A stretch of DNA of 64,000 nucleotides, from the IMG/VR virus record IMGVR_UViG_3300010158_000061, positions 7,534 to 71,533 of that record; one strand, given 5' to 3'. The notes beneath the pieces were generated by a model, which was given only the letters and a program-made list of their open reading frames with translations, did not search any database and had not been told where the DNA came from. Shown in pieces: positions 2 through 33,062 of this stretch; position 1 is the stretch's first letter, and each line of letters opens with the position of its first letter. The position numbers were made by a program, and so were the translations under genes. The DNA comes from a virus.

Positions 2-526
2 GTTGGATGTAATAACGATGAAGAATTACAAAGATTTTTTAATCACATACAATTAAATCCAGACGCTGATCCAATAATATTGGACGGCGACGATAAATTC
101 AATCAAGGTGTCAAAGACGGGGTTGGTACCTATTTCTTCCAGACACGCGGTGCAGTTTTAATGAATCCTGAATATTTAGCAAATACATGGTTTAGTTTGG
201 TAACAGAAACAGGGTTTCTCAGTGAAAAAACTTTTAAATTAATATACTATTGCCATCCGTTTATACTGGTGGGGATGCCGGGGATTCTTAATTCTCTAAA
301 GGAACTGGGATATAAAACATTTGATTGCGTATTTGATGAGAGTTACGATGACATGCATCTCAATGAGGAGAAAATATTATTTGTATCTAACCAGGTAAAA
401 CAATATTGCGGTGCAGAAGGTCGAAACAAATTCGCAGAAAAACTTCCTGAAATTGAAAAAATATTAAAATATAATAGAGAAGTATTTATAAACAAGAACC
501 ATTTTAAATTTTGGGCCGATCTTTAA
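2..526 (+). CDS. GT10-like (GT-B fold) glycosyltransferase-like protein, 5'-truncated by window edge
   Basis: Frame is open from position 2. Motif FSLVTET..LSEKTFK...HPFILVG..G.L..LKELGYKTF...FDESYD is shared with ORFs at 8675, 9768 and 26790 and resembles the GT10 fucosyltransferase TEK motif. Confidence 0.55.
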   Translation, partial: VGCNNDEELQRFFNHIQLNPDADPIILDGDDKFNQGVKDGVGTYFFQTRGAVLMNPEYLANTWFSLVTETGFLSEKTFKLIYYCHPFILVGMPGILNSLKELGYKTFDCVFDESYDDMHLNEEKILFVSNQVKQYCGAEGRNKFAEKLPEIEKILKYNREVFINKNHFKFWADL

Positions 527-879
527 TCACCGTAACGTTTTGTTTCTCTAACAGGATCATTGAGTTTTTCTGCCATGATATTTTTAAGAATGTATCGTTG
601 GTGTAGTACATCACGAGCATGCAACGCTCTTCTGCCTACTTCGGCCAAATCATACTTGTGTTCTACTCTGAAGTTTTTAAAATCATCCTCTAGTGCCCAT
701 ACTTCCTCATGTACTTTGTATAGTTTATCTAGCTCTTCGTTGATTAACTCAAAATTAATGTTGTGCAATTGCTCTGTATAAAAATCTAATTCTTCTTTGT
801 TGTTACCAAGTTTTGCAAATTTTAATTTAGCGATACAATATCGGTCTACTAGTTCAATAACAGGGAATTTATACATCAT
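523..879 (-). CDS. small helical protein, DUF6165/DUF4254-like
   Basis: Pattern ELVDRYCIAKLK...VHEEVWALEDDFK...EVGRRAL...RYILKN..E.K.Y resembles DUF6165-type proteins; TAAATA lies just upstream. Confidence 0.45.
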   Translation of the reverse strand: MMYKFPVIELVDRYCIAKLKFAKLGNNKEELDFYTEQLHNINFELINEELDKLYKVHEEVWALEDDFKNFRVEHKYDLAEVGRRALHARDVLHQRYILKNIMAEKLNDPVRETKRYGD

Positions 880-880
880 A

Positions 881-886
881 TATTTA
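881..886 (-). promoter_or_regulatory. TAAATA late-promoter-like motif
   Basis: Minus strand GTAAATA immediately upstream of the 879 start; the same motif recurs before five other genes. Confidence 0.45.
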
Positions 887-932
887 CTTAGAATAAAAAC
901 AGTATATATAATAAAGATATTAAGGCGTATAA

Positions 933-1148
933 ATGAACTCAGTAGACATGGCTAACAACCTAATTTTTAGGGCAAAGAATTTACAAGAATTTACAGTGAC
1001 AACAGAACTCCCCGAAGGATTTAAATTCAACGGGGCGGTTCCTTTTGATCTACAAATTGTAGGCAAGCAGTTAGAAGCACAAGTTTGGGCAGTAGATTTT
1101 GAAGAAGCAGTCAATAGGCTAAACGAATTTCTCCAAACTGAGGAGTAA
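933..1148 (+). CDS. hypothetical phage protein (71 aa)
   Basis: ATG ORF with plausible composition filling the gap between flanking genes. Confidence 0.7.
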   Translation: MNSVDMANNLIFRAKNLQEFTVTTELPEGFKFNGAVPFDLQIVGKQLEAQVWAVDFEEAVNRLNEFLQTEE

Positions 1149-3123: not shown

Positions 3124-3450
3124 ATGGCAATTGCTGATCCACAAACATCTTCAGACCTATACAAGCCACGCGAATCAAAAATAATTGATGGTAAAGTAAT
3201 CACTGTGAGTGATATGCTTGTGCATACGTTCGATGTAGGTGATGTTGAGGATCCAGATATAGTTGCAGGATTCCAACTTGGTGATTGGGAACGCAGTGAA
3301 GCAGGACAATGGGTCATGACCAATGCTGTAGAAACACCATACTGGATCAGACGCGGTGGTCCTGAGTACTGGGGACACAAATACCATGTTGTGGCTAGGA
3401 TGCGAGAATCAGATCAAACGTTTTTTAAATTAAAGTGGGGTAAAGAATGA
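3124..3450 (+). CDS. hypothetical phage protein (108 aa)
   Basis: ORF follows the promoter and is ATGA-coupled to the epimerase. Confidence 0.75.
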   Translation: MAIADPQTSSDLYKPRESKIIDGKVITVSDMLVHTFDVGDVEDPDIVAGFQLGDWERSEAGQWVMTNAVETPYWIRRGGPEYWGHKYHVVARMRESDQTFFKLKWGKE

Positions 3451-4415
3451 GAATACTTGTAACAGGCGGGCTAGGACTTATTGGGCACAATGTGGTGGCA
3501 CGATTAGAAGCTCGTGATCACAAAGTCGTTATAACAGACACACGTACTACGTATGGAATTATTCCACAGGCAGAACTCGATTACTTGATGTCTGAACGTA
3601 TCAAGAAGATCAAAACCAAATCAATCTACAATGTTGATATTACTGATGCAGAAAAATTTGATGCACTAGTGGCCAAGCACGAACCCGAAGTTATCATACA
3701 CATGGCCAGTTTTCCAAGACAAAAAGTTGTTAATGCCAACCCTGCTTGGGGTAGTCGTGTGATGATGGAAGGCCTGATCAACATTTGCGAGAGTGCCAAA
3801 AAGCACCGTGTTGAGCGTGTTGTGTACATTAGTAGTTCAATGGTGTACGGAGACTTTGAAGATCAAGTGGAAGAAGATCACGATTGCAAACCTATTGGTC
3901 AATATGGTATTATGAAACTCACAGGAGAAGACATTGTTAAAGATTATTATCGTCGTGGGGCTTTTGACTATTGCATTATTCGTCCCAGTGCTGTTTATGG
4001 GCCCTTGGACGTCGAAGACCGAGTGGTCGCCAAGTTCATGCTCACAGCAATGCGAGGCGGTGTGCTCAAGGTCAACGGTGCCAACGAAACCCTAGACTTT
4101 ACCTATGTGGATGATGCCGCAGATGGTATTGTGGCCGCCGCCATACGTATCATGAGTGCAAACAAAACATTCAATATTACTAAATCACATAGTGTCAGTT
4201 TATTAGAAGCCGCTGAAATGATTGTTAAGATTGTGGGCCGAGGCACCATTGAAGTGCGTGACAAGGATGCAGACTTTCCGTCACGCGGTGCATTAAATAT
4301 TGATAGAGCAAAAATTATTCTCAGCTTTGATCCCAAAGTAGACGTTGAACAAGGATTTAAAAATTACTACAACTGGCTTGACAATTCCCCATACTGGTCT
4401 CCGAAAACAGTATAA
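3447..4415 (+). CDS. NAD-dependent NDP-sugar epimerase/dehydratase (extended SDR)
   Basis: TGGLGLIG Rossmann motif, SSSMVYG, catalytic YGIMK (YxxxK), DFTYVDD. Confidence 0.93.
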   Translation: MRILVTGGLGLIGHNVVARLEARDHKVVITDTRTTYGIIPQAELDYLMSERIKKIKTKSIYNVDITDAEKFDALVAKHEPEVIIHMASFPRQKVVNANPAWGSRVMMEGLINICESAKKHRVERVVYISSSMVYGDFEDQVEEDHDCKPIGQYGIMKLTGEDIVKDYYRRGAFDYCIIRPSAVYGPLDVEDRVVAKFMLTAMRGGVLKVNGANETLDFTYVDDAADGIVAAAIRIMSANKTFNITKSHSVSLLEAAEMIVKIVGRGTIEVRDKDADFPSRGALNIDRAKIILSFDPKVDVEQGFKNYYNWLDNSPYWSPKTV

Positions 4416-5460
4416 CAATCTTCGTACAGAAATCCTGGACGTGACAGACACAGTACTGCGTTCAGGTGTTCTCATGGACGGCAATTACACCGCCGAGTTT
4501 GAAAACTGGTTGGCTAAAAAGAACCGTCTAAGTTATGCTGTGACTTGTCACTCGGGTACACAAGCACTTGAGATCCTAGCCGGCTACTATCGAGATAATG
4601 ATTTGGATTTTGTACGACCTCCCACGGTGTTAGTACCTGCATTGACTTACCCAGCCACTGCCAATGCTTTCCTACGAGCAGGATGGAAAGTTATAATTGG
4701 TGAGACCGACTACTATGGTCAGTTAGATACACGAAAGATACTCAAGGACATGGATCTACACTATCATGCCGTGTGTGCTGTGGGCTTGTATGGTGCGGCA
4801 TTACGTGATATGCAACCAGCAAAAAATCGGGCTATCCTCATCGAGGATGGTGCACAACATTGGTTAAGCGACGACTGCCGCAGACAGGGAGAGGCCACTG
4901 CTATCAGTTTTGATCCCACAAAGAACTTTGCTAACTATGGCAATGGTGGTGCTGTGGTCAGTGATGATCGTAAATTATTAGATTATGCAAGAGACTGGAT
5001 CAACAACGGAAAGCACACACGACACAGTGAAGTTGGTACTAATTCAAGAATGAGCGAAATAGATTGTGCTCAGATGATGGTCAAAACCAAATACATCAAT
5101 CAATGGCAAAAACGTAGAGGAGAGATTGCCTCACACTGGATTGAACGCTTAAAGAAGACTGGCGTAAGAACGTTAATCGATGATTCAAACTTTGAATCAC
5201 ACTGCTATCACAAGTTTGTGATTGAAGCAGACAACAGAAATATCATGCAACGTAATCTTACCTTGCGCAAAATAGAAACAAAAATACATTATGCAGAACC
5301 CTTGCATGAATTGCCTGCTTATCAGCACCTAGACAATCCTGGTACGTTGCTAAGTCCAGCATCATCCTTAAGCAGACGTTGTTTAAGTCTTCCACTATAT
5401 CCTGAACTTAGCGACATGGAAGTAGAATACATCATTGATCAATTGCTGGATGTTGTATGA
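4345..5460 (+). CDS. DegT/DnrJ/EryC1/StrS PLP-dependent sugar aminotransferase (start uncertain)
   Basis: SGTQAL, PALTYPATANA, IEDGAQ, SFDPTKN (PLP Lys), GNGGAVV, GTNSRM, LSLPLYP. Confidence 0.92.
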   Translation: MNKDLKITTTGLTIPHTGLRKQYNNLRTEILDVTDTVLRSGVLMDGNYTAEFENWLAKKNRLSYAVTCHSGTQALEILAGYYRDNDLDFVRPPTVLVPALTYPATANAFLRAGWKVIIGETDYYGQLDTRKILKDMDLHYHAVCAVGLYGAALRDMQPAKNRAILIEDGAQHWLSDDCRRQGEATAISFDPTKNFANYGNGGAVVSDDRKLLDYARDWINNGKHTRHSEVGTNSRMSEIDCAQMMVKTKYINQWQKRRGEIASHWIERLKKTGVRTLIDDSNFESHCYHKFVIEADNRNIMQRNLTLRKIETKIHYAEPLHELPAYQHLDNPGTLLSPASSLSRRCLSLPLYPELSDMEVEYIIDQLLDVV

Positions 5461-6269
5461 TCAAAATAGATTTTCATGGTAGTACACATGGGCATTTTTT
5501 AGAATATGTGAGCAACGTTTACATCATGCAAACTACTCCAAGCCAACGTAATATTTTTAAACCTCCTACATACTCTGCGCATAACCCTGACGTTAGTTAT
5601 TTTAACAATCGAATAATTGAATGCGGGCATTTTTCAGAACCAATTTATAAGTTAAACATTGATGACAAAGATCAAGTTATTAGAATTGTACTAGATCAGC
5701 GTGATGACAATATATTTTTTATAGCATTTACTAATGTAATGTTCAAAGCTGGAGATCTAGGATTTAAAAAACAAATCCTAAAAATACCTGACTCTATTAG
5801 AAATAATAAAATAGAACTCAGAAAAATTTTTTATAGCAAATTTGATGAGCGAGAAAAATATGCCAACTACTACGCTAATTTTTTGCCAACATTAGCCCCA
5901 GTGTTTGAATTTAAAATTGAATCATTTTTTTCGTTTAAAAATTTTTGTGCTGAACTAACTTCCTTGGCAAATTTTTTGAATCAAACATTTTTTCCTGATC
6001 AATCGTTATACACACTTTGGACTGAGTTCATTGCCAGGAACCAAGGGTGGCAATCATGCCTTAAATGCAATCAACTATTAGCAGATATATTTGCTAACGC
6101 TGATAAAACGATAGATTGCACAGTACTTGAAGAAGCTTGGATCAATTACAATCTATCTAGGATGTGTAAATTATACAATAATGATCTACTGAGTGAACAA
6201 GAATTGTATCCAACTAATACACAACAGGTGTATAAAATAGTTCAACAGCATCTCAGTAGGTTGAGATGA
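5457..6269 (+). CDS. hypothetical protein (270 aa), AT-rich
   Basis: ATGA-coupled to the aminotransferase; no family confidently recognised. Confidence 0.7.
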   Translation: MIKIDFHGSTHGHFLEYVSNVYIMQTTPSQRNIFKPPTYSAHNPDVSYFNNRIIECGHFSEPIYKLNIDDKDQVIRIVLDQRDDNIFFIAFTNVMFKAGDLGFKKQILKIPDSIRNNKIELRKIFYSKFDEREKYANYYANFLPTLAPVFEFKIESFFSFKNFCAELTSLANFLNQTFFPDQSLYTLWTEFIARNQGWQSCLKCNQLLADIFANADKTIDCTVLEEAWINYNLSRMCKLYNNDLLSEQELYPTNTQQVYKIVQQHLSRLR

Positions 6270-6273
6270 CTTA

Positions 6274-8676
6274 TTAATCAGTTGTTAGACTGCGCCGCAT
6301 AAACGCATAACTAGCCAACCAGGGCCACTCGTAACTTTTCTTGAGTGCCTCAAAGTCTCCACCAACCTCTTCATAATAATCCACAGCATCCGCCGCACCT
6401 TTTGAACTCCAATGCCCATTGGCAATAGTACCGGAGTCTTCCTTCAACCATGCATTTAGTCTATATTCATTTTCCACGTCAGGCAAACTTGCACGTAATT
6501 TAAGTGCTTCACGGAAAGCGGTTCGCCAGGCCATCCAAGGCGATTCAGCATACATGGCTGTGCCGCTGAAAATGGGTACAACTTCATGTGCTTGGTCTAG
6601 TGTAAAATCTAGTCCTGTACCTGTGTTCTCTCTCACCAATTGCCGATTGTAAGCGATCATGGCCTGATGACCATATACCAAACCATTCACAGGATTACCA
6701 GCATGAAAAATATAGTGCTTGGCCTGTTGCATACGATCAGATTGCCATGACCAATCAAAATGTTGATCAACTCGCAATTTAGCAAACACCGCAAAGAACC
6801 AAGGAGTTTCAGACATGTTGGCGGCTGCTTGGTATGCGGCCACACGACCATTCACGCCGGAACTTCGATGTAATCTATTTGGTAAATTGTATGTTGCACT
6901 ATTGAGGTGTGTAAAGTTACTGTCAGCATCACGTTCACCATTGTCAATGAACACAATATCCAGAGGCTGATCTTTCAGCACCCGATGTGTTTTGTCTATG
7001 TAGGCATAATCGTACAACTGTGTCTTGACGTAGGGGACAGCGGTCTTGGGTACAATTACACTAGTAGCACCTGAACTGAGAGGCACAACGGTCTTGACGT
7101 TTTCTCTCCATAACGGTACCGTTACCAAGTTGCCCGACACATAGTCAGTATTGGTAAACAGGGCCAATGGTCCTGCCCAGTCCAGTGTGCGAACTGCTTC
7201 TGCTTGGCTATCAAAATCATGTCGAATAACAGGCACAGGACGTCGTGGCACACTGGTTGTGACAAAGTTTACATCATACCATTCCAACAAGGACTTGCGC
7301 TCTGCATATTCAGCAAAGGTGGGTACATGCATATAAAAAGTATCGCCAAATTTTTCTCCGTCACTAGCAAACACATGCAACATTGTAGCTTGCCATTGTT
7401 CAGGATGCCACGAAAAATCAAATTTGCTGTAATCACAAATACTGCTACACACCCAAACAAATTCGTGTTTGTCTAACAAGTTGTTTGCTAGACGTATCAG
7501 TGTATCTCTGTAGTTGTCAAAGTATCTAACACATTTTGTTGTGTTGGGTATTTGCCCAGCATTGCCATCCAAATGATCAATTTCCACAATCACGGCTGAT
7601 GTTGAATCAACTTTGATTTTTATTTGTTCGACATATTTTATTTCTGTAGCACCGGGCACAGTATATACAGGTCCTCCGGTACGTTGCCATTGTGTACCAA
7701 ACTGATAGATATATGGCGGCTCTGTGGCATCGGGGTGCCATGACCAGTCAAAACTAGTTGTATCAACACCATCTGGTATGCTCCAATTATTGTCAATACT
7801 GATCTTGACACATCGCGGCCGGTTTATATATTTTATTTCTGTAGCACCGGGCACAGTATATACAGGTCCTCCGGTACGTTGCCATTGTGTTCCGAATTGA
7901 TACGTGTATGGTGGATCTCCTGGGTCGGGAACCCACGAATAATCTACACTGGCAGGATCAATAGTGTCAGGGATAACCCATCTGAAACGATCAGGTAATA
8001 GTTTAGCCGTTGGCCACCTCACATACTTGCGTTCTGTAGCACCGGGCACGTGATATTCTACCGTAGGCATTTTTTCCCCTGACCAATGCTGATTGCCGAA
8101 CACATGGATGTAAGGAGAATCCCCTGGGTCAGGAACCCATGAATAGTCCCATTCACAATTTACCAGCATGTGCCAACAATTGTTGTGCTGTGGTTGTAGT
8201 TTTGCTTGCGGTCTATCCATGTACTTGTGTTGTGTTGCACCTGCTACTGTGTATTCCACTGTGGGCATTTTTTCTGCTGACCACCACTGATTACCAAACA
8301 CATATATGTAAGGTGGATCATGCGGATGCGGTGCCCAAGAGTAATCAAAATCTATTCCATTTATTAATGTATTAAAATTGTCTAGATTACATTTGTTAGG
8401 AATAACTTTTTTGTGAAAGTGATATTTGATCTCTCCAGATCGTGGCACAAGATATGTGCCCGAATACTCATGATGTTGACTAGGCCAAGTATGCGTGTAC
8501 TCGCTTTGCCACGGCACAGGTTGAAAATCCCAGTTGAATGTGCTATAATCACATAAGTATGTGATACACCAAAAATACCTTGTACGGCATAATTTTTGTG
8601 CATGCTCAATACTATCCGCCGCACGTTCATGTGCAAATTGGTTAGGTTTAATTCCCAAATAGAAAACGTCAAACAT
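6274..8676 (-). CDS. 800-aa repeat protein with degenerate GT-A-like domains
   Basis: Four DYSWxPxPxxPPYxxxFGxQW repeats; the C-terminal domain aligns by eye with the 29944 GT-A protein but has FAK in place of DGD. Confidence 0.7.
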   Translation of the reverse strand: MFDVFYLGIKPNQFAHERAADSIEHAQKLCRTRYFWCITYLCDYSTFNWDFQPVPWQSEYTHTWPSQHHEYSGTYLVPRSGEIKYHFHKKVIPNKCNLDNFNTLINGIDFDYSWAPHPHDPPYIYVFGNQWWSAEKMPTVEYTVAGATQHKYMDRPQAKLQPQHNNCWHMLVNCEWDYSWVPDPGDSPYIHVFGNQHWSGEKMPTVEYHVPGATERKYVRWPTAKLLPDRFRWVIPDTIDPASVDYSWVPDPGDPPYTYQFGTQWQRTGGPVYTVPGATEIKYINRPRCVKISIDNNWSIPDGVDTTSFDWSWHPDATEPPYIYQFGTQWQRTGGPVYTVPGATEIKYVEQIKIKVDSTSAVIVEIDHLDGNAGQIPNTTKCVRYFDNYRDTLIRLANNLLDKHEFVWVCSSICDYSKFDFSWHPEQWQATMLHVFASDGEKFGDTFYMHVPTFAEYAERKSLLEWYDVNFVTTSVPRRPVPVIRHDFDSQAEAVRTLDWAGPLALFTNTDYVSGNLVTVPLWRENVKTVVPLSSGATSVIVPKTAVPYVKTQLYDYAYIDKTHRVLKDQPLDIVFIDNGERDADSNFTHLNSATYNLPNRLHRSSGVNGRVAAYQAAANMSETPWFFAVFAKLRVDQHFDWSWQSDRMQQAKHYIFHAGNPVNGLVYGHQAMIAYNRQLVRENTGTGLDFTLDQAHEVVPIFSGTAMYAESPWMAWRTAFREALKLRASLPDVENEYRLNAWLKEDSGTIANGHWSSKGAADAVDYYEEVGGDFEALKKSYEWPWLASYAFMRRSLTTD
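7633..7890. repeat. exact 63-nt intragenic direct repeat (7633-7695 and 7828-7890)
   Basis: atattttatttctgtagcaccgggcacagtatatacaggtcctccggtacgttgccattgtgt occurs twice, 195 nt (65 codons) apart. Confidence 0.92.
8521..8549 (+). promoter_or_regulatory. sigma70-like promoter inside the antisense 800-aa gene
   Basis: TTGAAA(8521-26), 17 nt, TATAAT(8544-49) with extended TG; about 125 nt upstream of ATG 8675. Confidence 0.6.
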
Positions 8677-16442: not shown

Positions 16443-16540
16443 TTGTAAATGAAAGGATCTCGTTTGCGTAGTTCTTTTAATTTTTTACGATAACGTATTT
16501 CTAAAATGATCCTATCCCAAATTCTTCTAATCCAATTCAT
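16439..16540 (-). CDS. 33-aa basic micro-protein (MNWIRRIWDRIILEIRYRKKLKELRKRDPFIYK)
   Basis: Not in the ORF track. GGAG Shine-Dalgarno upstream and ATGA overlaps on both sides; PFIY ending recalls SxtK/DUF5989 peptides. Confidence 0.75.
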   Translation of the reverse strand: MNWIRRIWDRIILEIRYRKKLKELRKRDPFIYK

Positions 16541-24094: not shown

Positions 24095-25481
24095 ACCATT
24101 CTCTTAGATCGGAAAATGTAGCCGTAAAGTTCTTGTTTCGGCGTTGATCGTACTGTGAAAAGAAACTTTTGAAATCTTTTTCCATTGCTGAAACATTGTG
24201 ATCAAAACTGTGATCATTGAATTCTAGTGTACCATCAGAAATTATACTACCTCGATGAGGTACTTGTATTTCAACAAGATAAGATATCAATCTGCTTATG
24301 AAATTTTGTTCTACTACTGAAAACCATTGATAATTAGCGTCAAGAAAATTTTGTAATTCAGCACTATGCTGTTTTCTTTTTTCTATCGGTAATACCAGGA
24401 CATTCTGAAAAGTAGGCCAACGCACGTAACTAATGTACAAATTAAAATATGTACGACTAGTTTGTTTCTTTTTTTCTACTAACCAAGTTAAAAATTCTAC
24501 AAATCCATTCAATGATAATGCACTTATTGTAGACATCATAACCACCCGTCGTATACGTTTGTTATCAATCAGTGTATCAATATTACAACACCATTGATCC
24601 CAATTTAATCCGTCTCTAACATATTCTGCTTTTGATCCAACAGATTCGGCACTGGTAGAAATTGAAATATTTGATTTTATGTTTGAAATTTTATTAAAAA
24701 ATTTATTCAGTGTGTTTGAATCATATGCTAGATTAGTTTGTATTGATATACCTGCGTTACTTTTATTAGGGTTCTTTTCTAACCAATCTAAGAATTTCCA
24801 GAAATGTCCACTCATCAATGGCTCTCCACCAGTGATATGTATATTCTTCAATGACCGATGCAGATCAGTTTCCCACCATTTAAAAAATGCTTCAGTATAG
24901 GGATTTTCTTCACCATAACTGTAATTGTCTCCATCACTACCAGCAAGTGTGTAATGGTTACGCTCATCTGTAACAATATTTTGGTACACACCGTTTTGTT
25001 TTATGTCGCGCATCCAGGAACTGCTGATGTCAGGACAACAATAACTGCATGCTAGATTACAGGTGCTATCAAATCCCAATTCAAGATATGTTGGATTTAC
25101 ATGTGTATCGGGGGAATTTTCAAATGCTGATTGCAGATTTTTTTCTGCCATTGGTTTACTGTATATAACTCTGTCGGTTACCAATTCGGGATCAATATCT
25201 TGCACAGCCCAACAATACTGACAATCTAGCGGTCTCTCTCCACGTTGCATCATTGCACGTTCGTTTATCTTTTTCGGTGTATTATGTAATGCGCTAGGAG
25301 TTTGGGCAATCTCTAATTGATTAATTTGATGAGGTGGGTTATGATGACAACTAGCAGTCCATCCTCTCCACAACCAGATACTTGAATGATACCATTTGGC
25401 TCCACAAAAACTTTCGCTCTTGGTGTCAAGCACTCTTTCTTTCCATTGTTTTATTACTGAAAGATTTGCTGGGAAAGTCAT
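24081..25481 (-). CDS. N-Twitch radical SAM enzyme, subfamily C
   Basis: FCGAKWY...SCHHNPPH...DCQYCW; CNLACSYC; GGEPL. Confidence 0.92.
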   Translation of the reverse strand: MTFPANLSVIKQWKERVLDTKSESFCGAKWYHSSIWLWRGWTASCHHNPPHQINQLEIAQTPSALHNTPKKINERAMMQRGERPLDCQYCWAVQDIDPELVTDRVIYSKPMAEKNLQSAFENSPDTHVNPTYLELGFDSTCNLACSYCCPDISSSWMRDIKQNGVYQNIVTDERNHYTLAGSDGDNYSYGEENPYTEAFFKWWETDLHRSLKNIHITGGEPLMSGHFWKFLDWLEKNPNKSNAGISIQTNLAYDSNTLNKFFNKISNIKSNISISTSAESVGSKAEYVRDGLNWDQWCCNIDTLIDNKRIRRVVMMSTISALSLNGFVEFLTWLVEKKKQTSRTYFNLYISYVRWPTFQNVLVLPIEKRKQHSAELQNFLDANYQWFSVVEQNFISRLISYLVEIQVPHRGSIISDGTLEFNDHSFDHNVSAMEKDFKSFFSQYDQRRNKNFTATFSDLREWYDSI

Positions 25482-26809
25482 AAGGAATTATACCAGGTTT
25501 TTAAATTAGGAAATGCTTGACCAAAATCTTTGCCACGTCGTTGGTCATACTGTGTATAAAACTGTTTAAAGTCATTCAGCAATTTGGGCATTTCGAATGC
25601 TTCTGAGTGCGGAGTTTTTACCACATCCAAATAGTCAATCAATCGCAATAGGTGATTGATTTCGTGTTCATGCATATAAGATTGACCTTTGTGTCGTACC
25701 ATAAAATCTATTAGACCGAATCGGTATTGTGTACGCAATTCATCAGGTAATACCAAGGGTGATTGAAAACTAGGAAATCGTAGTATGTTTAATGTAAACG
25801 ATACAGCATCACGACCGTATTCCAGTTTCCAGTTTGCAATACAGTCTAGCAATTGATCCAAACTGTCTAGGCACAATGCATTGACAGTACACATGACATG
25901 GATGCCACGAAACTTGCCTGAATCTAACAAACGTTCTACGTTGTTGGCCCAGTCGTCCCATACAAGACCATCACGGATGTATTCTGCTTGCAGACTAATT
26001 GCTTCGTTTGAAGTATACAAATCTATGTCCATGCCATCTACACTGATCAATAATCTATCAATATCTACGTCTGTGCCAAGATTTGAGTTAATTGCTAGTC
26101 TTGTTTGGCTCTTGCCTTGGTTTTGTTTAAACCAATCAATCAGCTTCCATGTGTAGCCTGACATGAGTGGTTCACCTCCGGTTATTCTCAATTCTTGTAA
26201 GGTTCTGTGGAGATCTGATTCCCACCAGGCAAAGAACGCCTCCACATACGGATTAGTTTCACCGAATTTATAAAGTTGAGCACTATCGTGAGTGTGAGTA
26301 AAATGGTTCCTGCCGTCACTAACAAGTCGGTCATAAGGTCCATTCTTTCGTATATCGTTAACCCAAGTGCTACTAAAAGCAGGGTTGCAATAAGAACAAG
26401 CAAATTGACAAGTGCGGTCAAATGCAATTTCAAGGGTTCGAAGATTAACATCATCTTCTGGCGGAGTGTGGAAAGCATCATTCAAGGCCTCTATGGGAAA
26501 TATCTTTGATTTGTACACACGGTCGCTAATAGCATCACGTCCCATGTCTTCAATCTTCCAGCAGTATTCGCATCCAGCTGGACGTTCGCCTGCAATCATC
26601 TTGCGGCGGTCATCTTTCTTTTGATCAGTGTTGTGCAGTAGCTTAGGGTTGGCACGGACTTGATCACGGTCCACCAAATGGGCCGGCGGGTGGTGGCAAC
26701 TTGTGGTCATGCCTGAGCCCAACCAGATGGTAGCATTGTACCATTTTGCCGCACAAAAACTTTGGGACTTGGTGTCTAACACCTGTTGTTTAAATTCTAA
26801 ATCGATCAT
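25478..26809 (-). CDS. N-Twitch radical SAM enzyme, subfamily C
   Basis: FCAAKWY...SCHHPPAH...GCEYCW; CQFACSYC; GGEPL. Confidence 0.93.
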   Translation of the reverse strand: MIDLEFKQQVLDTKSQSFCAAKWYNATIWLGSGMTTSCHHPPAHLVDRDQVRANPKLLHNTDQKKDDRRKMIAGERPAGCEYCWKIEDMGRDAISDRVYKSKIFPIEALNDAFHTPPEDDVNLRTLEIAFDRTCQFACSYCNPAFSSTWVNDIRKNGPYDRLVSDGRNHFTHTHDSAQLYKFGETNPYVEAFFAWWESDLHRTLQELRITGGEPLMSGYTWKLIDWFKQNQGKSQTRLAINSNLGTDVDIDRLLISVDGMDIDLYTSNEAISLQAEYIRDGLVWDDWANNVERLLDSGKFRGIHVMCTVNALCLDSLDQLLDCIANWKLEYGRDAVSFTLNILRFPSFQSPLVLPDELRTQYRFGLIDFMVRHKGQSYMHEHEINHLLRLIDYLDVVKTPHSEAFEMPKLLNDFKQFYTQYDQRRGKDFGQAFPNLKTWYNSL

Positions 26810-27965
26810 TGATGAATTGTTTGAATTGTTCAGGGAATTCTTTTCGAACGTTAATACTCATTTCTGCAAAATGTTCTAGGTTATATTTACATACATTATA
26901 ACACTCTTCTGCAAACTTTACAAGGTCTTGTTGACATAAATCTTCTACTACCTCAGCAGTGCGTTCAATACGTTGTTGATTATCGTCAATTTGATCAAAT
27001 GTTTCATCTATCAAATGTCCAAATGTTTGAAATCCTAAATTATGAAGATCTCGATAGTACCCTGTATTGGCTGCTATTACAAAAGGATGGCCAATTGATA
27101 TTGGCTTCCAGGTTTTTTCAGTCCTAAAACTGTAAGGATACATGTATACTGTTTCTGTTACCAAACTAAAATACGTATCAGCGTATGGTTCGGCTCGCAA
27201 GTATATGTCTCCCCAGGTATTATTAAATAACTCAGACTTAACAAATCCTTGTTTTGTAGATTTTTCAATACAGTGAGAATAAGATTCCACTTCATATTTT
27301 GGGTCTAAAAATTTTACAGGCAGCGGTTGTTGAACAAAATCTACATTTTTATTTATAAATGACACTGATTTATTTTCCTGTATCATCAATTGAGGTCCGG
27401 CTCTTGAATCAAGATTAGTCCAAATAGATTGATCCAACAATCCCGATATACGAAATCGTTCTAGTAGATATTTCCTGTGCGGACGACCACGACCATTTAA
27501 AAACAAAAATTTATAAGGTTTTTCCGCTTTATATAAATTTTGGTATTGTTGTATAACTGCTCGATTTTCAGCGTAGTCTAAAATATAAGTTAGAAAAATA
27601 TCGTATTGAAGATAATCCCACTGTGGTTCTTGGTCACCACCAGTTATGACCAATATTTTTCTAGACTCAACTAAATCTAATAAATCACCATAGGCTATTA
27701 GGTGTCCTTTTATTGTAGCAGATCCTTCATGGGGATTACTAAAAATCACCGTAATAGTATCATCTATGACTAGTTGTCGTATTGTCTTTGCGTTTAATTG
27801 TAATTGCTCTCGCCCAATTACATATATTGCATTGGGGACCAGTTGATTAGAATTTACATGATCTGCAAAATTCCAAAAAATAGCATCAGCTTTATCCTTA
27901 ATTATATGATAGATATCACAATGAGTATCTAAAATTAGTTTACGATTGCCTAGCATAATACTCAC
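26790..27965 (-). CDS. GT10-like glycosyltransferase-like protein
   Basis: FLFLNGRGRPHR; YFSLVTET...RTEKTWKPISIGHPFV...LGFQTF..LIDETFD. Confidence 0.6.
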   Translation of the reverse strand: MSIMLGNRKLILDTHCDIYHIIKDKADAIFWNFADHVNSNQLVPNAIYVIGREQLQLNAKTIRQLVIDDTITVIFSNPHEGSATIKGHLIAYGDLLDLVESRKILVITGGDQEPQWDYLQYDIFLTYILDYAENRAVIQQYQNLYKAEKPYKFLFLNGRGRPHRKYLLERFRISGLLDQSIWTNLDSRAGPQLMIQENKSVSFINKNVDFVQQPLPVKFLDPKYEVESYSHCIEKSTKQGFVKSELFNNTWGDIYLRAEPYADTYFSLVTETVYMYPYSFRTEKTWKPISIGHPFVIAANTGYYRDLHNLGFQTFGHLIDETFDQIDDNQQRIERTAEVVEDLCQQDLVKFAEECYNVCKYNLEHFAEMSINVRKEFPEQFKQFINDRFRI

Positions 27966-29349
27966 ATTCTGCCCACCAAGACTTCATCTCTGGAAATGTT
28001 TCTAAGAAATTTGTACTGCGTCTGTGATCATGTTCGTTAAAAAATCTATAAAAGTCTGCCCGTGCAACTGAATGATCTTGGTCCTGTTTGCTACGCATCC
28101 AAGCAATATCTCTGTCTAGTCTTGCTACTTCGTAGTCTTTAAATCCGCAATGTAGATATCGTGGATCTTCCATGTGTGCCAACATAAATTGTTTGGCTTC
28201 TTCAAGTTTGGCCACATAACTTTCTGGCATGATTTGCAAACTTTGCCATGCTGGTTCACGCAACACTGGGGTATCAAACCACACACGTTGGTATGTGCGA
28301 CTGTGTGTTCTGCGTAAAAACAATATCCAACCCAACAAAGGTTTCAATCCTGTGATTGAAAGATTGTTCATGGTGATTATAAAAGTAAGACTATTGTGAC
28401 CGGGTATTTCTGTCAGGTAGCGATCGACATTAGCGGACATTCTCATGTAATCAAGTCCATGACGAATATATTCTGCCTGTGCAGGTATGCCAGAATCAAG
28501 ACTCACATACTGCATGAAGTGTTCAATGCGTCCGTCACATAACTGTTTTACTTTGTTTATGTACTGATTGAATAATCCCGATTCTACACTGAAGTTACTG
28601 GTGACATCAAGGTGCAATTTTGAACTAGGGTTCTCCAGCACATAGTCAAACACTTGATATGTGTTCTTGTCCATGAGTGGCTCACCACCAGTCATACGGA
28701 AGTGTTCTAGTTGTGGATACAACGTCGGCCACCATGCCCAAAATGCATCTACGTAAGGATTAGCGTCCCTAACAGGTATAGGCCGCCTAGAACCAACAAA
28801 ATGACTGGGATTGTTGTGAGTATTGCTAGTAGGATATCCACCCAGTCGTTCAACTTCGGACTGCCAGGTGGAACTAAATTGAGGGCTACAATAACTGCAA
28901 GATAAATTGCAAGCATGATTAAAATTAACTTCAACGTAGCTAGGGATAACATCATCTTCATCTCCGGTGGAATTTTTTATCTTTTCAAAGTCCACAGCGG
29001 CCCAGGACTCACCTGACCGATAGTGTCTATCGCTTAGTTTGCCTTGATCTTCCATGTTCCAGCAGTAAGAGCATTCTGTAGGACGTTGACCACTCAGCAT
29101 CAATTGACGTTGTGCTTTTTTATGTGTGGTGTTATGCAATGCACTTGGATCAAACTTGATTTCCACAGGGTTTATTGCATGCAAGGGCGGATGATAGCAA
29201 CTGTTGTTAAGTCCTGTGGGCAAGTGTAGAGAGACTTGTTTCCATTTGGCCAAACATAATGCTGGCCCTAGTTTATCAGCCATTTGTTCGGCTGAACCCA
29301 TGAATACACTTTTATTATTTGCAGGTACATCACTATTTTGTTGATTCAT
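27940..29349 (-). CDS. N-Twitch radical SAM enzyme, subfamily C
   Basis: LCLAKWK...SCYHPPLH...ECSYCW; CNLSCSYC; GGEPL. Confidence 0.93.
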   Translation of the reverse strand: MNQQNSDVPANNKSVFMGSAEQMADKLGPALCLAKWKQVSLHLPTGLNNSCYHPPLHAINPVEIKFDPSALHNTTHKKAQRQLMLSGQRPTECSYCWNMEDQGKLSDRHYRSGESWAAVDFEKIKNSTGDEDDVIPSYVEVNFNHACNLSCSYCSPQFSSTWQSEVERLGGYPTSNTHNNPSHFVGSRRPIPVRDANPYVDAFWAWWPTLYPQLEHFRMTGGEPLMDKNTYQVFDYVLENPSSKLHLDVTSNFSVESGLFNQYINKVKQLCDGRIEHFMQYVSLDSGIPAQAEYIRHGLDYMRMSANVDRYLTEIPGHNSLTFIITMNNLSITGLKPLLGWILFLRRTHSRTYQRVWFDTPVLREPAWQSLQIMPESYVAKLEEAKQFMLAHMEDPRYLHCGFKDYEVARLDRDIAWMRSKQDQDHSVARADFYRFFNEHDHRRSTNFLETFPEMKSWWAECEYYARQS

Positions 29350-29939
29350 TTTGCCCTGTTATCTTTCCATTCTTGTGCTTTCCAGGTGGCCGGTGGGGGC
29401 ATTGATTCTAATTCATCAAATTTTTCTTTTAATTCATTGGCGTTTAATATGTTATTTTCAGAATAGAGATTTTTATTAGTTTGTATTTTTATCCGCGAAA
29501 TTTCAAGTTGATCACATAATATTTCACTGTGACCGATAAAATCTTCAAACACAAGAATCTTACGATTGGTATAATGCGTTAATTCACGATGAGCCTGGTG
29601 CCAATACTTGTGCCAAAAATATTTTTGTTCGAACATTTCAAGATCAGCAACAAATGGTGGTTTATTTCCGGTGTAGAATGCCCATTCATTATATTGCTCA
29701 CATACCATTGCACTAATAATTTCAGCGTATAGATTTTTTCTCATAACATGCAAGACAGGGATGTCAGAATTCAATTGCAGTTGAGCATCATGGCTGTGAT
29801 ATACTATTAGATTGCTTGATTGTGGCATTGGTTCTTGATTGCTCATTACTGCGCGAATTCCCAAACTTTTTGCAATAGTGAGTGCAACAAATATGCTACC
29901 ACTGCGACCTGGACTGCCTACAATGTATTTCACAGCCAT
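29346..29939 (-). CDS. sulfotransferase-like P-loop protein (Stf0-like)
   Basis: N-terminal GSPGRSGS (PAPS 5'-PSB-like), RKNLYAEIIS (3'-PB-like) and FEDF. Confidence 0.5.
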   Translation of the reverse strand: MAVKYIVGSPGRSGSIFVALTIAKSLGIRAVMSNQEPMPQSSNLIVYHSHDAQLQLNSDIPVLHVMRKNLYAEIISAMVCEQYNEWAFYTGNKPPFVADLEMFEQKYFWHKYWHQAHRELTHYTNRKILVFEDFIGHSEILCDQLEISRIKIQTNKNLYSENNILNANELKEKFDELESMPPPATWKAQEWKDNRAK

Positions 29940-29943: not shown

Positions 29944-30867
29944 TTACCAACCCTCTTGCTGTCTAATTACATCTATCTCGCGAAGCATTACGCCACGATT
30001 GTGCCAATTTGAACGATAATGATATTTAAAAAATGCACTTTGTTCGCTTTCTAATATGGCCATTGGCAAGTCTAGTTGTGTACCTAGTTCAGGACCCAGT
30101 TGATTAGACAAAATACGAGGTTGTGAATCTTTAACCGTTTCCCATAACTCTGCCAAGGCATCAAAGTCTTGTACTAGAGTATGGTCCCAATTGCTCAGCA
30201 TGGTCATATATGTGCCTTGTCTCGACCCAGCAATGGCCCATTCTCCGTAGTCAACATCTGTTCCTACGTTATGCCATATGGTCATATGATCTAAATTGCG
30301 TAATACTTGATTTTTAAATTCAGCCACAGTGGGTTTTGTGCCACGTTGCAAACACATTTTGACACCTTCACGGAAGCCGGCACGCCAGGCTTGAAACGCT
30401 GATCCATTGGGATAGGTGTTTGAATAGCAATCGTACATGGGCCAGTACAAGGGATCAAAACAAAATTCTACCTGTGTTTCTGTTCTACCATCTGTGGCTT
30501 CGTGAGTTCGCATGCGGTTGATAAATGTCCTGGTCCATGAACTCAACCCGCCATTGCCGTACATGAGTCCGTTGATGTGATTTCTTGCCCTCCAGCGATA
30601 TACCGCCTGTTCATGCTGTTCGGTAGAATATATCAGAGTCTTGTTGAAGAACTCCGGGTCAGGCATGTTGTCGCCATCAATCAAAATAAAACGTTCAGTG
30701 TTGCTGGCTGCGGCTGCGGCTTTGTGTGCGGCATCGGATCCTTTGATCCCATCTACACGTACCGCCCAAGGAACCATGTTTTTAATCTTGATCCAAAACT
30801 CTTCACGTAGTGGTTCATCGTATGTTAAAAAAATACAATCTAAGTCTGCTATATCAATTTGTTTCAT
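29944..30867 (-). CDS. GT-A fold glycosyltransferase-like protein
   Basis: DCIFLTYDEP...RVDGIKGSDAAHKAAA...FILIDGDN (DxD motif). Confidence 0.65.
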   Translation of the reverse strand: MKQIDIADLDCIFLTYDEPLREEFWIKIKNMVPWAVRVDGIKGSDAAHKAAAAASNTERFILIDGDNMPDPEFFNKTLIYSTEQHEQAVYRWRARNHINGLMYGNGGLSSWTRTFINRMRTHEATDGRTETQVEFCFDPLYWPMYDCYSNTYPNGSAFQAWRAGFREGVKMCLQRGTKPTVAEFKNQVLRNLDHMTIWHNVGTDVDYGEWAIAGSRQGTYMTMLSNWDHTLVQDFDALAELWETVKDSQPRILSNQLGPELGTQLDLPMAILESEQSAFFKYHYRSNWHNRGVMLREIDVIRQQEGW

Positions 30868-31192
30868 AAGTTTTTATCTTCCATCTTTGATGCGGCTCCA
30901 ACTCTGTGACCACTATTGCCATATTGTCAGGATGGCATGGTGTTCCTGTATCGCTGGGCACCAGTTTCTTTGTTGTCGTTTTATTTGCAAGTTGAATTAA
31001 TTTGCCATCCTGTACACGAACATTCATACTAGCAATTGCAAATGTTTCTGGGCTAACGTCGATGTATGTACCTGGTAAATCTTCCATGGTATAATGAATT
31101 GGTGTCCCATCTATATTGTAGTACAAGCGAAACAACACCGGTCCGGGGGCTGGCATTGCATGCAGGATTGCCCAAAATTCATCTGGCGTCAA
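30854..31192 (-). CDS. hypothetical protein (probable start TTG 31192)
   Basis: A start at (M)TPDEFW avoids a long overlap with the upstream gene; FRLYY motif. Confidence 0.6.
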   Translation of the reverse strand: MTPDEFWAILHAMPAPGPVLFRLYYNIDGTPIHYTMEDLPGTYIDVSPETFAIASMNVRVQDGKLIQLANKTTTKKLVPSDTGTPCHPDNMAIVVTELEPHQRWKIKTYETN

Positions 31193-31967
31193 CTCGGAAC
31201 CTCTTTTGGTTGTAGTGTACTGCACCCCATTGGGCTTGAGTGTTGATGCGTAGCAAATAGTCTCGATATTCCCACGCAAACTCTTCCATCCAGTCTTCAC
31301 GTTGAGCATGCATGATATGTCGTTTCATGTGTACAATTGTGGGATAGGATGCAAACGGCATGGTGCATTTCTCTACTCCCACAATCTTGGCCGCAATGGC
31401 ATACACCACATCGGTACTTGGCACATCTTCAGGAAACTTCAATAACGCACGATAGTGAGACCAGTTCTCAAATATGGCTTGCACTGTGTCAAAAAACTCT
31501 TTAGCTGTTAAACTCAAACGCCAATATGTGATAGCATTGTACACATCCGGTAAATCGTTGGCATCAAATACCTTGCGATAGTGTCTAGACTTGGCACGTT
31601 GATCTTTCCAGTCTCTACAGCCTGTACTGACCACAACCTCACGATGTCGTGCCATGTCCCACCAGTGATCAATAGGACTGGTCACAATCATGTCTGCTTC
31701 TAGTTTGATAGTTTCCCTAAAGGGAGTAACATGAAACACTTGACAGTCATTGGCATAAGCGTTGGCCACAGTGGGCAAGGGAAACTCACGCACATAATTA
31801 AACAAGTGTGGTGCAGGGTTCTCTGTTGAATTGGTCAACAAACAGATTTTGGCATCAGGATGCCAGTATTTTATACTCTGTGCCAGTTGATGACTGCAAT
31901 CAACATAGTTGGTAGAGTCAGTGTTTGTGGCCACTATCAAGTAGCCTTGTTCGTCAATTGGTTTCAA
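31179..31967 (-). CDS. GT-A (GT8-like) nucleotide-diphospho-sugar transferase
   Basis: GYLIVA.N...YV...LAQSIK; TPFRETIKLEADM (ExD at the DxD position); STDVVYAIA; HMK. Confidence 0.65.
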   Translation of the reverse strand: MKPIDEQGYLIVATNTDSTNYVDCSHQLAQSIKYWHPDAKICLLTNSTENPAPHLFNYVREFPLPTVANAYANDCQVFHVTPFRETIKLEADMIVTSPIDHWWDMARHREVVVSTGCRDWKDQRAKSRHYRKVFDANDLPDVYNAITYWRLSLTAKEFFDTVQAIFENWSHYRALLKFPEDVPSTDVVYAIAAKIVGVEKCTMPFASYPTIVHMKRHIMHAQREDWMEEFAWEYRDYLLRINTQAQWGAVHYNQKRFRVDAR

Positions 31968-32757
31968 TTATTTTCTCCAAATGCTTCTTGCCCATGGCAT
32001 GGAAATCTTGATTCTTCAATGTTATCCACCGAGGGCGTTGTTCACGGTCCGTATAATCCACACGATACTGATCTAGTGCTATACGTGTGACTGTGTGTTG
32101 CGGTGTCAAACTAGCCAGGCTCCAGGGTATTGTAGGGTGTTGCCCCATTTGCCCATGCACAATATTTAAAGCAATGCTCAAAGCATAGTCATTTCTATAG
32201 GTAGCAGTACGAACTTGGTAAAGATCGGTATAGTGTTTCCAATTGGCCTTGATCATTCGCATACAATCAAATATTAATTCTGCATGAAGACTTCGACGAA
32301 ACATCATAACAGTGGCCCAGCTCATGGGCATGCGATAATTTCCGTAATGATTTAAGCCCACAAAGTCATCTTGTGCCACAATGTCATAGGCTGAGCCATG
32401 TGCTAGGAAATCTTGTTTGGCTGTTAGCACATTTTTTAATTGACTGCTGGCCACAACATAATCTGCATCTAGTACTAGTGTTTGATCCCAGGGTGTTAAT
32501 GCATACGCATCTGTTCTACCGGCATTGTGCCAAGTCACTGTACAATCATAATCTTCAAAATGTCTTGTGCCGCCTGATTCTGCATCAGCAACAATAATTT
32601 GATCAAATTTGTATTTTTTTGCTTGTGTTTGGTCGTTTGTGACCAAGGCTACTGGAATTTTTAAATGACGTTTTACGTTTCGAGCACACCAGGCAGCCAT
32701 GCGTATATAATCTGTTTGTTCGTTGTTGAAAGCAAATATTAGTGCGCCTGTGGTCAT
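31954..32757 (-). CDS. GT-A (GT8-like) nucleotide-diphospho-sugar transferase (start corrected to ATG 32757)
   Basis: GALIFAFNN..DY; TPWDQTLVLDADY (DxD); YRNDYALSIA; HAMGK; paralog of the downstream gene. Confidence 0.7.
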   Translation of the reverse strand: MTTGALIFAFNNEQTDYIRMAAWCARNVKRHLKIPVALVTNDQTQAKKYKFDQIIVADAESGGTRHFEDYDCTVTWHNAGRTDAYALTPWDQTLVLDADYVVASSQLKNVLTAKQDFLAHGSAYDIVAQDDFVGLNHYGNYRMPMSWATVMMFRRSLHAELIFDCMRMIKANWKHYTDLYQVRTATYRNDYALSIALNIVHGQMGQHPTIPWSLASLTPQHTVTRIALDQYRVDYTDREQRPRWITLKNQDFHAMGKKHLEKIIETN

Positions 32758-33062
32758 CTGTTTTGATTTAGTTTTTCGTATTCTATCAACCAGGCGTTCA
32801 TTTGTTCCTGCCAATGGCCATGTGCTTGAGCATACAGTTCAGGCACATTCACACGCACAGGAGTTTCGTACAAGTCCAACAACACAACATCTTTGTCTTG
32901 AGCACAACTCAACAACACACATTGTAATTCAGGACCAGCTCGCCACATGCCACCTGAGTGGGCAAACAGCATACGTGCTTCGTATTTTTCTTTTAGAGTG
33001 CGACGAGCAGTGGCATGGTCAAATCTAGCCCGTGCATGAGCTACTAGAGTTTCAGTGTTCAT
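32754..33062 (-). CDS. hypothetical protein (102 aa), first gene of the modification operon
   Basis: Lies directly after the promoter and is ATGA-coupled to the GT gene. Confidence 0.75.
   Translation of the reverse strand: MNTETLVAHARARFDHATARRTLKEKYEARMLFAHSGGMWRAGPELQCVLLSCAQDKDVVLLDLYETPVRVNVPELYAQAHGHWQEQMNAWLIEYEKLNQNR

Follow-up and report, generated by a model that had tools for sequence, protein, structure and literature searches.

Twitch-domain radical S-adenosylmethionine (SAM) enzymes that act on sugars are known from aminoglycoside pathways, with BtrN, HygY, and NeoN as examples. On the phage side, Freeman et al. reportedly described in 2023 the glycosylation of mycobacteriophage virions by phage-encoded glycosyltransferases (GTs), which are said to be one or two ordinary enzymes. 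Parts of a richer chemistry are in print for T4-like marine phages: in the accessible portions of the respective papers, cyanophage S-SCSM2R has DegT-like, amidinotransferase, and radical SAM genes that are called 'antibiotic synthesis genes' (PMC12801897), pelagimyophages carry radical SAM cassettes in a host-recognition cluster beside tail-fibre genes (PMC7029224), and one T4-like marine genome has 12 radical SAM genes (PMC5332604). Here we describe a gene island of about 33 kb in a 64,000-nt stretch of viral DNA (hereafter the window; bases 7534-71533 of the 71.5-kb linear IMG/VR record IMGVR_UViG_3300010158_000061, CheckV completeness 21%), in which ten radical SAM genes stand with genes for sugar-type enzymes and GT-like proteins behind the tail module. 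We lean towards the view that this island encodes a soluble pathway in the cytoplasm, by which a sugar structure bearing amino, amidino, and carbamoyl groups is assembled and edited by radical chemistry, probably with the neighbouring Ser/Thr-rich fibre proteins as acceptor. Coordinates are positions within the window unless stated otherwise, proteins are named by the first coordinate of their genes (Table 1), and 44 open reading frames (ORFs) of the window were analysed.

A preliminary description of the window, made from the sequence without database searches, had counted ten radical SAM enzymes. PF04055 matched at 10 places in the record (4 over the Pfam cut-off), and nine of the ten proteins matched the NCBIfam model NF033640 (N_Twi_rSAM) over its full length at 195-400 bits, where the curated cut-off is 170 bits; the tenth fell far below it. 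None of 14 control genomes contained a protein passing this cut-off. The nine N-twitch paralogs have the permuted layout of NF033640, with the auxiliary-cluster domain ahead of the barrel, and share 20-42% mutual identity. The CX3CX2C motif (C140, C144, C147), GGE at 202-204, and twitch residues C32, C50, C93, and C96 are invariant in 9/9. Against solved structures, the N-terminal domain matched residues 189-261 of BtrN, its twitch domain (9.5e-5), with viperin, MoaA, and BlsE also among the matches. Secondary NCBIfam matches of the radical SAM proteins were mostly viperin, MoaA, QueE, and NrdG, all small-molecule enzymes. The phage enzymes thus resemble BtrN in their auxiliary [4Fe-4S] twitch domain and sugar-gene context, whereas their domain order is reversed, their core resembles BtrN no more than it does TigE, viperin, or MoaA, and no aminocyclitol synthase accompanies them. 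Homology does not single out one substrate class for the phage N-twitch enzymes.

Related loci were collected by scanning viral contigs with one of the radical SAM proteins, which returned 220 relatives. Eighty of these, with 74-85% identity, were kept, and all counts out of 80 refer to them; a gene was scored as present at ≥45% identity and ≥60% cover, and the flank limit leads to under-counting of genes that lie >10 kb from the query. Five core radical SAM genes occur in 76-80 of the 80 loci, compared with 4, 7, 3, and 4 loci for accessory copies 13699, 18840, 21447, and 24081, respectively, so that the phage island, unlike NF033640 as such, combines five fixed orthogroups with variable copies. 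In a quick maximum-likelihood tree (71 rows; support from the Shimodaira-Hasegawa-like approximate likelihood ratio test, SH-aLRT), each of the five core proteins formed its own clade with window, freshwater, and marine phage orthologs (SH-aLRT 95-100), and four of these clades had Bdellovibrionota or Bacteroidota sisters. Accessory proteins 13699, 18840, and 21447 formed a phage-only clade, and 24081 was sister to the 25478 group. The five core enzymes are old and do not duplicate one another, a pattern that speaks for five distinct reactions.

The order and surroundings of the island are likewise conserved. Gene order was identical in all six loci that were laid out, and eight contigs filed under bacterial metagenome-assembled genome (MAG) names proved to be phage DNA with the same succession of fibre-like, transferase-like, and radical SAM genes; five of these eight are marine (47-53% identity). 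The placement of the island behind baseplate and fibre genes was confirmed by matches to a baseplate wedge protein (1e-273), a hub protein (1e-40), and gp25 in the right half of the window. Five complete relatives reached through the locus are 320-353 kb long and 92-100% complete, with terminal repeats in 2/5. In 5/5, the distance between a baseplate homolog and the radical SAM ortholog is 30-35 kb, as in the window, and in 4/5, a DegT copy (60-62% identity) lies 11-17 kb from this ortholog at the far end of the island. Because both positions are kept, a chimeric or host-derived block unlinked to the tail genes, which the preliminary description had named as the outcome that would overturn it, is excluded; the block is phage-borne, conserved, and tail-linked. 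The structural protein encoded at 62277-63998 shows 29-32% identity to virion proteins of Rak2-type jumbo phages (337-366 kb). By these comparisons, the source is a Rak2-like jumbo phage of ≈345 kb, and the window is part of a fragment of its genome. The 33-kb block is not a single operon: it falls into at least four transcription blocks, which use both strands, and the window edge cuts its left end.

Four other enzymes named in the preliminary description held up in profile searches. The carbamoyltransferase carries both domains of the NodU/CmcH/TobZ O-carbamoyltransferases (Carbam_trans_N, 121.7 bits, cut-off 24; Carbam_trans_C, 159.4 bits, cut-off 27), and its His108, His109, His112, and Asp131 are invariant in 25 orthologs. 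Homologs annotated 'Nol-like carbamoyltransferase' are present in 141 phage records, mostly of cyanophages. The amidinotransferase gave no match in the Pfam scan; a 20-sequence profile, by contrast, matched AGAT (3.2e-19), StrB1 (4e-14), HsvA (1.2e-13), and SxtG (2.7e-13). Its Cys330 and His191 align with Cys407 and His303 of the AGAT catalytic triad, which we take to be Cys407, His303, and Asp254, and the Asp254 position falls just beyond the aligned stretch. The DegT/StrS aminotransferase scored 184.5 bits against PF01041 (cut-off 19.8), and the nucleotide-sugar epimerase is a member of the NAD epimerase/dehydratase family. With the TTG start given in the ORF list, the DegT ORF shares 71 bases (4345-4415) with the epimerase gene; the true DegT start probably lies further downstream.

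This enzyme set had been likened to aminoglycoside and aminocyclitol chemistry. The parallel holds at the level of enzyme families; it does not extend to a cyclitol-forming enzyme, which is found in 0/44 ORFs (no Pfam match to 2-deoxy-scyllo-inosose synthase or inositol-phosphate synthase at E≤0.01), or to the radical SAM proteins, which are not BtrN or NeoN. Because its core enzyme is lacking, we rejected an aminocyclitol pathway. Moreover, none of the 44 ORFs encodes a membrane segment (19-residue window, mean Kyte-Doolittle hydropathy ≥1.6), and Pfam scans of these ORFs found no flippase, polymerase, initiating transferase, or exporter family, which implies that the pathway acts in the cytoplasm. 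Virion proteins, the host surface, and DNA had all been proposed as targets; the absence of membrane segments from all ORFs speaks against direct assembly at the host surface.

The radical SAM array contains only 94 non-coding bases, and these are filled by a 33-codon gene whose product, hereafter the micropeptide, has 11 Arg or Lys among its 33 residues. Across the viral loci that hold it, we found 51 distinct sequences, in which the C-terminal 21 residues are almost invariant. Diversity at codon positions 1, 2, and 3 is 0.21, 0.12, and 0.42 (whole gene, 49 sequences), and by this pattern the gene is under strong selection at the protein level. The micropeptide, orphan-fold, and carbamoyltransferase genes occur together in 68 loci, and all 6 loci that seemingly lack the carbamoyltransferase end ≤1.2 kb from the micropeptide gene. 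Complex models of the micropeptide with the carbamoyltransferase scored 0.75, 0.00, and 0.75 in three runs, compared to 0.00 for the best of three controls; the mark applied to this score was reached by 58/80 solved complexes and 2/110 mismatched pairs, rough counts since they rest on our own alignments. The runs agree in ≥44% of contacts, with a partner predicted local distance difference test (pLDDT) value of ≥55. In the models, the peptide uses its DPFIYK tail and one face of its helix to contact conserved residues of the N-terminal domain of the enzyme. This modelling supports binding of the micropeptide to the carbamoyltransferase. To our knowledge, characterised NodU/CmcH/TobZ enzymes have no such peptide partner, and the phage enzyme differs from them in being paired with this near-invariant peptide and with the orphan-fold protein. 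The latter had no fold match in the PDB at E≤1e-3 among the 65 matches listed, no match in a PDB profile search, and no usable match in an Atlas search; ten matches in BFVD were all uncharacterised phage proteins. Cultured Ralstonia phage RsoM2USA contains a diverged, unannotated micropeptide copy that keeps the DPFIYK end (L162:8041-8133; profile E 1e-5). This copy sits between genes 201 and 200, near a carbamoyltransferase of 47% identity and an N-twitch radical SAM protein of 50% identity, both annotated 'hypothetical'.

The proteins that would assemble a glycan are harder to assign. The preliminary description had listed about eight GT-like proteins, and eight candidates can indeed be counted, in three orphan families; the GT identity of all of them is weak. 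The TEK family comprises four proteins (2-526, 9083, 9768, and 26790) with a common C-terminal domain bearing a T-E-K motif. A PDB profile search with this family found no sequence match. For the 26790 model, 9 of the 10 best PDB folds were GT-B enzymes, with LmbT, SdgB, OtsA, VldE, and TarM at the top, at E values of only 0.027-0.13 and template-modelling (TM) scores of 0.30-0.40. The GT8-like pair (31179 and 31954) matched glycogenin over profile positions 21-105, with A91 and D92 invariant. The third family, made up of 29944 and the C-terminus of 6274, has 1352 representative clusters at E≤1e-3, and its members of ~740 aa carry the domain C-terminally. It gave no Pfam or PDB sequence match even with a 58-row profile, and a GT role is suggested only by Atlas neighbours, one in a cluster automatically named 'Glycosyltransferase 2-like' (0.99) and one in a PF00535 cluster (0.87). 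Comparison of our own profiles with hhalign revealed no relationship among the three transferase-like families and the orphan fold. Two proteins previously called sulfotransferase-like (13092-13697 and 29346-29939) are not supported as such: neither matched a sulfotransferase in Pfam or the PDB at E≤10, only short P-loop-like motifs are visible by eye, and they occur in 2/80 and 1/80 related loci.

In the pathway that we favour, the epimerase/dehydratase and the DegT aminotransferase would supply an amino-deoxy nucleotide sugar, and up to eight GT-like proteins would assemble a short glycan on a cytoplasmic acceptor. The amidinotransferase, with arginine as donor, and the carbamoyltransferase, acting with its 33-residue partner and the orphan-fold protein, would decorate amino or hydroxyl groups. 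The five ancient core N-twitch enzymes and their lineage-specific copies would then edit C-H positions without oxygen, by oxidation, epimerisation, or deoxygenation. As acceptor, the Ser/Thr-rich fibre proteins of the phage itself, whose genes are directly upstream, would be likeliest; taken alone, this choice of acceptor is tentative, and we would sooner doubt it than rely on it. Gene families, intact catalytic motifs, conservation, tail linkage, and the lack of membrane segments were read directly, and from these we infer substrate class, order of steps, and acceptor. As in mycobacteriophage virion glycosylation, soluble phage proteins, here candidate transferases, are encoded beside structural genes and virion proteins are a likely acceptor; that system, by contrast, is not known to involve radical SAM enzymes, amidino or carbamoyl chemistry, or a micropeptide, for all of which the island has genes. 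A sugar-tailoring role is the best reading of the enzyme families and their context, which includes GT2 and/or DegT genes beside the radical SAM gene in 4/7 bacterial loci and KdsA, KdsB, and GT genes beside the amidinotransferase homolog of a cyanophage.

Several results weigh against this reading. Among solved structures, the radical SAM core best matches TigE (2e-7), a peptide cyclopropyl synthase that acts on peptides made by the ribosome and modified after translation (RiPPs). NF033640 has no member with a known product, acceptor, or activity, and a full-text literature search returned no paper naming the family. In complete relatives G001-G005, 8, 6, 10, 16, and 17 places exceed the NF033640 cut-off, and since many of these lie far from the island, the family is not tied to this locus. 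No sugar gene was among the scanned neighbours in 3/7 bacterial loci that hold homologs. Pfam scans of the window revealed no nucleotidyltransferase, all GT assignments are weak, and one of the three complex runs scored 0.00. Moreover, the link to the fibre proteins is one of adjacency only, and a terminator-like site lies between the fibre genes and the enzyme block.

Those bacterial homologs (32-42% identity) were located with a three-row alignment, the nine-paralog alignment being too divergent for a locus scan; they come mainly from Bdellovibrionota, Bacteroidota, Myxococcota, and a few isolates, and often occur in 2-5 copies per 20 kb. We scanned 2-7 neighbours per locus at 7 loci. GT2 and/or DegT genes adjoin the radical SAM gene in four loci (L110, L120, L091, and L111); L110 also has genes for an acyl carrier protein, ketosynthases, and a short-chain dehydrogenase/reductase beside it, and L091 has genes for an epimerase, PhyH oxygenases, and a UbiA-type enzyme. 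The other three contain proline racemase and methyltransferase genes (L144), PhoX and polyphosphate genes (L103), or genes for PhyH, a WelO5-like protein, an ABC ATPase, and a methyltransferase (L088). In L103 and L111, both from Bdellovibrionota MAGs, five N-twitch genes stand in a row right after a PhoX alkaline phosphatase gene, with an unassigned gene for a protein of ~230 aa among them. Cultured, T4-like Vibrio phage K566 (L160; 153-182 kb of its record) has five radical SAM homologs in 17 kb. This region contains no other island genes and is not beside tail genes, and one radical SAM homolog and most neighbours are annotated 'hypothetical'.

The match to TigE, together with the general observation that SPASM/twitch enzymes frequently act on peptides, raises the alternative that the radical chemistry is directed at peptide or protein. 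Its target would be either the micropeptide, which would serve as a RiPP- or cofactor-like scaffold and receive its glycosyl and carbamoyl groups afterwards, or the fibre proteins, through crosslinks or epimerisation. Mycofactocin is a glycosylated, peptide-derived example. The protein-level selection on the 33-codon gene, the invariant DPFIYK end, and its modelled position on the conserved N-terminal domain of the carbamoyltransferase are all compatible with this alternative. By contrast, no RiPP recognition element or peptidase appeared in any Pfam scan of the window, the peptide accompanies the carbamoyltransferase and orphan-fold genes rather than a radical SAM gene, and its contact residues share one face of a helix, which is what a small subunit would show. 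The secondary matches to small-molecule enzymes also speak against it, and because the 33-codon gene fills the non-coding bases of the array, there is no room in the array for other precursor genes. We therefore consider peptide-directed chemistry unlikely. Somewhat less likely still is a version in which the micropeptide is the scaffold or carrier of the whole pathway: the carbamoyltransferase would dock on the DPFIYK tail, the five core radical SAM enzymes and the transferase-like proteins would build on the peptide, and the phage would make a peptide-anchored, radically edited glycoconjugate, a viral parallel to cofactors that derive from glycosylated peptides, for use in the virion or during infection.

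We give a similarly low weight to remodelling of the host surface, in which unusual nucleotide sugars or edited host glycan intermediates would be exported by host machinery and would change lipopolysaccharide (LPS) or capsule, for example as a block to superinfection. The bacterial loci, with their GT2, ABC ATPase, UbiA-type prenyltransferase, PhyH, and methyltransferase tailoring genes, would fit such a role, and phage 'LPS' genes near tail fibres are discussed in this way for pelagimyophages in the accessible text of PMC7029224; however, the 44 ORFs include no initiating transferase, flippase, polymerase, or membrane segment, eight soluble transferase-like proteins would be odd for synthesis of precursors alone, and the island is located with late structural genes. 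The solubility of all the proteins and the very basic nature of the micropeptide would also suit hypermodification of DNA or nucleotides, with sugars and carbamoyl or amidino groups on genome bases protecting against host nucleases. Glycosylation of phage DNA is an established phenomenon, as are radical SAM steps in the hypermodification of thymidine, and a ThyX (flavin-dependent thymidylate synthase) gene stands immediately left of the sugar genes (2432-3103, plus strand; 2e-43). This explanation is improbable in our view, since ThyX yields ordinary thymidine monophosphate, the Pfam scans found no base hydroxymethylase, DNA glycosylase-like transferase, nucleotide kinase, or DpdA-type enzyme, and the island lies behind fibre genes rather than in a replication module. 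Least probable of all, and by our estimate very much so, is a diffusible aminoglycoside-like or other small molecule made during infection, the reading implied by the 'antibiotic synthesis genes' label in the part of PMC12801897 that is accessible. It draws on the family parallels to StrB1-type amidinotransferases, TobZ-type carbamoyltransferases, StrS-type aminotransferases, and the BtrN-type twitch domain. Against it, the Pfam and membrane-segment scans of the window found no cyclitol-forming enzyme, exporter, or resistance gene, a secreted antibiotic would bring little gain to a lytic phage, and the S-SCSM2R amidinotransferase homolog (30% identity) itself adjoins KdsA, KdsB, and a GT, that is, genes for 3-deoxy-D-manno-octulosonate and glycosyl transfer.

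The preliminary description had stated that no characterised phage pathway of this kind was known, and our literature searches fit this statement. A full-text search, in which supplementary tables were not covered, returned no description of the island, and an amoC-phage preprint mentions only HpnH. The pieces in print (PMC5332604, PMC12801897, and PMC7029224) come without characterisation in their accessible parts. The S-SCSM2R and pelagimyophage sets share with the island either amidinotransferase, DegT-like, and radical SAM genes or radical SAM cassettes by tail fibres; they differ in being smaller, in being noted without mechanism in those parts, and in an amidinotransferase of only 30% identity. 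New here are the ten-copy radical SAM array, the amidinotransferase identified by profile, the negative result for sulfotransferases, and the test of the peptide. Phages with the island are common in lakes and have marine cousins, as judged from the 220 related viral contigs and >7,800 metagenome homologs of one enzyme, and their investment amounts to ~20-30 kb, with as many as 17 genes from a single radical SAM family. Solving the island would assign NF033640 its first reaction, reveal what one orphan fold and three orphan transferase-like families do, and give a carbamoyltransferase a micropeptide partner. It would also test whether giant phages of aquatic habitats coat their fibres with a glycan edited independently of oxygen, which bears on host recognition and resistance.

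Table 1. Features of the island and its border with the tail module. Coordinates refer to the window; bits are NF033640 scores unless another model is given; AF2, AlphaFold2; PLP, pyridoxal phosphate.
Feature	Position	Strand	Evidence and remarks
TEK-family (GT-B-like) protein, C-terminal 174 aa of 473 aa	2..526	+	gene begins upstream of window; full ORF G000:C1:6638-8059; A3 profile 5e-33; paralogs 9083, 9768, 26790
NAD-dependent sugar epimerase/dehydratase	3447..4415	+	PF01370 4.4e-43; GDP_Man_Dehyd 1e-29
DegT/StrS-type PLP aminotransferase	4345..5460	+	PF01041 4.4e-54
Uncharacterised 270-aa protein	5457..6269	+	no Pfam or PHROG match
800-aa protein, C-terminal part like 29944 family	6274..8676	-	BLASTP residues 604-734 vs o29944, 28% identity, 2e-7
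Small conserved protein	8675..8992	+	in 19/80 flank-limited loci
Short TEK-family protein	9083..9790	+	C-terminal domain in common with 9768, 26790
TEK-family (GT-B-like) protein	9768..10952	+	paralog comparison; no Pfam or PDB sequence match
Amidinotransferase (AGAT/StrB1/SxtG/HsvA family)	10939..11976	+	profile A1 vs PDB
Short radical SAM, N-terminal SPASM/twitch-like domain, outside NF033640	12080..13102	+	PF04055 1.1e-14; PF13186 residues 31-97; NF033640 30.9 bits
Accessory 201-aa protein (previously sulfotransferase-like)	13092..13697	-	no Pfam match at E≤10, no PDB match; 2/80 loci
N-twitch radical SAM, accessory paralog	13699..14970	-	234 bits; 4/80 loci; phage-only clade with 18840, 21447
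NodU/CmcH/TobZ-type carbamoyltransferase	14961..16442	-	PF16861 7.8e-47; PF02543 6e-35; 67/80 loci
33-codon gene, basic micropeptide ending DPFIYK	16439..16540	-	start and stop overlap both neighbours; 71/80 viral loci
Conserved orphan-fold protein	16537..17565	-	68/80 loci; AF2 pLDDT 88
N-twitch radical SAM, core orthogroup	17558..18847	-	281 bits; 76/80 loci; clade with marine phages, Bacteriovoracaceae sister
N-twitch radical SAM, accessory	18840..20252	-	195 bits; 7/80 loci
N-twitch radical SAM, core orthogroup	20236..21507	-	330 bits; 78/80 loci
N-twitch radical SAM, accessory	21447..22832	-	222 bits; 3/80 loci
N-twitch radical SAM, core orthogroup, top match to family model	22829..24094	-	400 bits; 80/80 loci, 74-85% identity
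N-twitch radical SAM, accessory, sister of 25478	24081..25481	-	275 bits; 4/80 loci
N-twitch radical SAM, core orthogroup	25478..26809	-	284 bits; 78/80 loci; 50% identity to gene 202 of Ralstonia phage RsoM2USA
TEK-family protein, probably GT-B fold	26790..27965	-	AF2 pLDDT 90.9; weak PDB fold matches
N-twitch radical SAM, core orthogroup	27940..29349	-	308 bits; 77/80 loci
Accessory 197-aa protein (previously second sulfotransferase-like)	29346..29939	-	no relevant Pfam match, no PDB match; 1/80 loci
Orphan-family member with conserved DGD motif, possibly GT-A-like	29944..30867	-	72/80 loci
Uncharacterised 151-aa protein	30854..31309	-	47/80 loci; no family match
GT8-like (glycogenin-like) candidate	31179..31967	-	profile A5 vs glycogenin E 0.008; 70/80 loci
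GT8-like candidate, paralog of 31179	31954..32814	-	paralogy and A5 profile; 59/80 loci
Small conserved protein, first gene of minus-strand enzyme block	32754..33062	-	55/80 loci; no family match
Terminator-like hairpin with T-run, promoter-like site overlapping	33069..33106	-	between fibre-like gene and enzyme block; consensus matches only
Ser/Thr-rich (32%) fibre-like protein, candidate acceptor	33122..34120	-	composition; position conserved, marine relatives included; no family match
Virion structural/tail-fibre-like protein (24% Ser+Thr)	34132..36039	-	phrog_14394 2e-9; tail fibre phrog_19602 0.008

A PHROGs scan of ten uncharacterised proteins gave a single family match, for which no function is annotated. 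Megablast of 21 kb against isolated phages found no match. Freshwater and lake metagenome runs, by contrast, hold the stretch: at least half of the sampled words were present in 5 runs, and runs from 2017 and 2022 contain pieces with 0-1 differences to it, so that the same strain was found in runs from several studies and years. In a lake metatranscriptome run (X20), 5 short contigs of depth 2-4 were identical to parts of radical SAM genes (18393-18599, 22174-22320, 22459-22609, 23754-23901, and 29129-29299), and other parts of the stretch were uncovered in this run. These contigs are a weak hint of expression; because DNA carry-over is possible, they do not demonstrate transcription. Island-bearing phage contigs (L081, L082, L083-L087, and L157) were filed in MAGs labelled Haliscomenobacter, Legionellales, Porticoccaceae, TMED, and Rickettsiales. 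These labels are likely binning artefacts and offer at best a faint hint of hosts. Finally, an ORF of 4832 aa (36837-51335, minus strand) with faint FG-GAP and CBM5/12 matches lies between the fibre-like genes and the baseplate wedge gene, and presumably encodes a giant fibre or tail protein.

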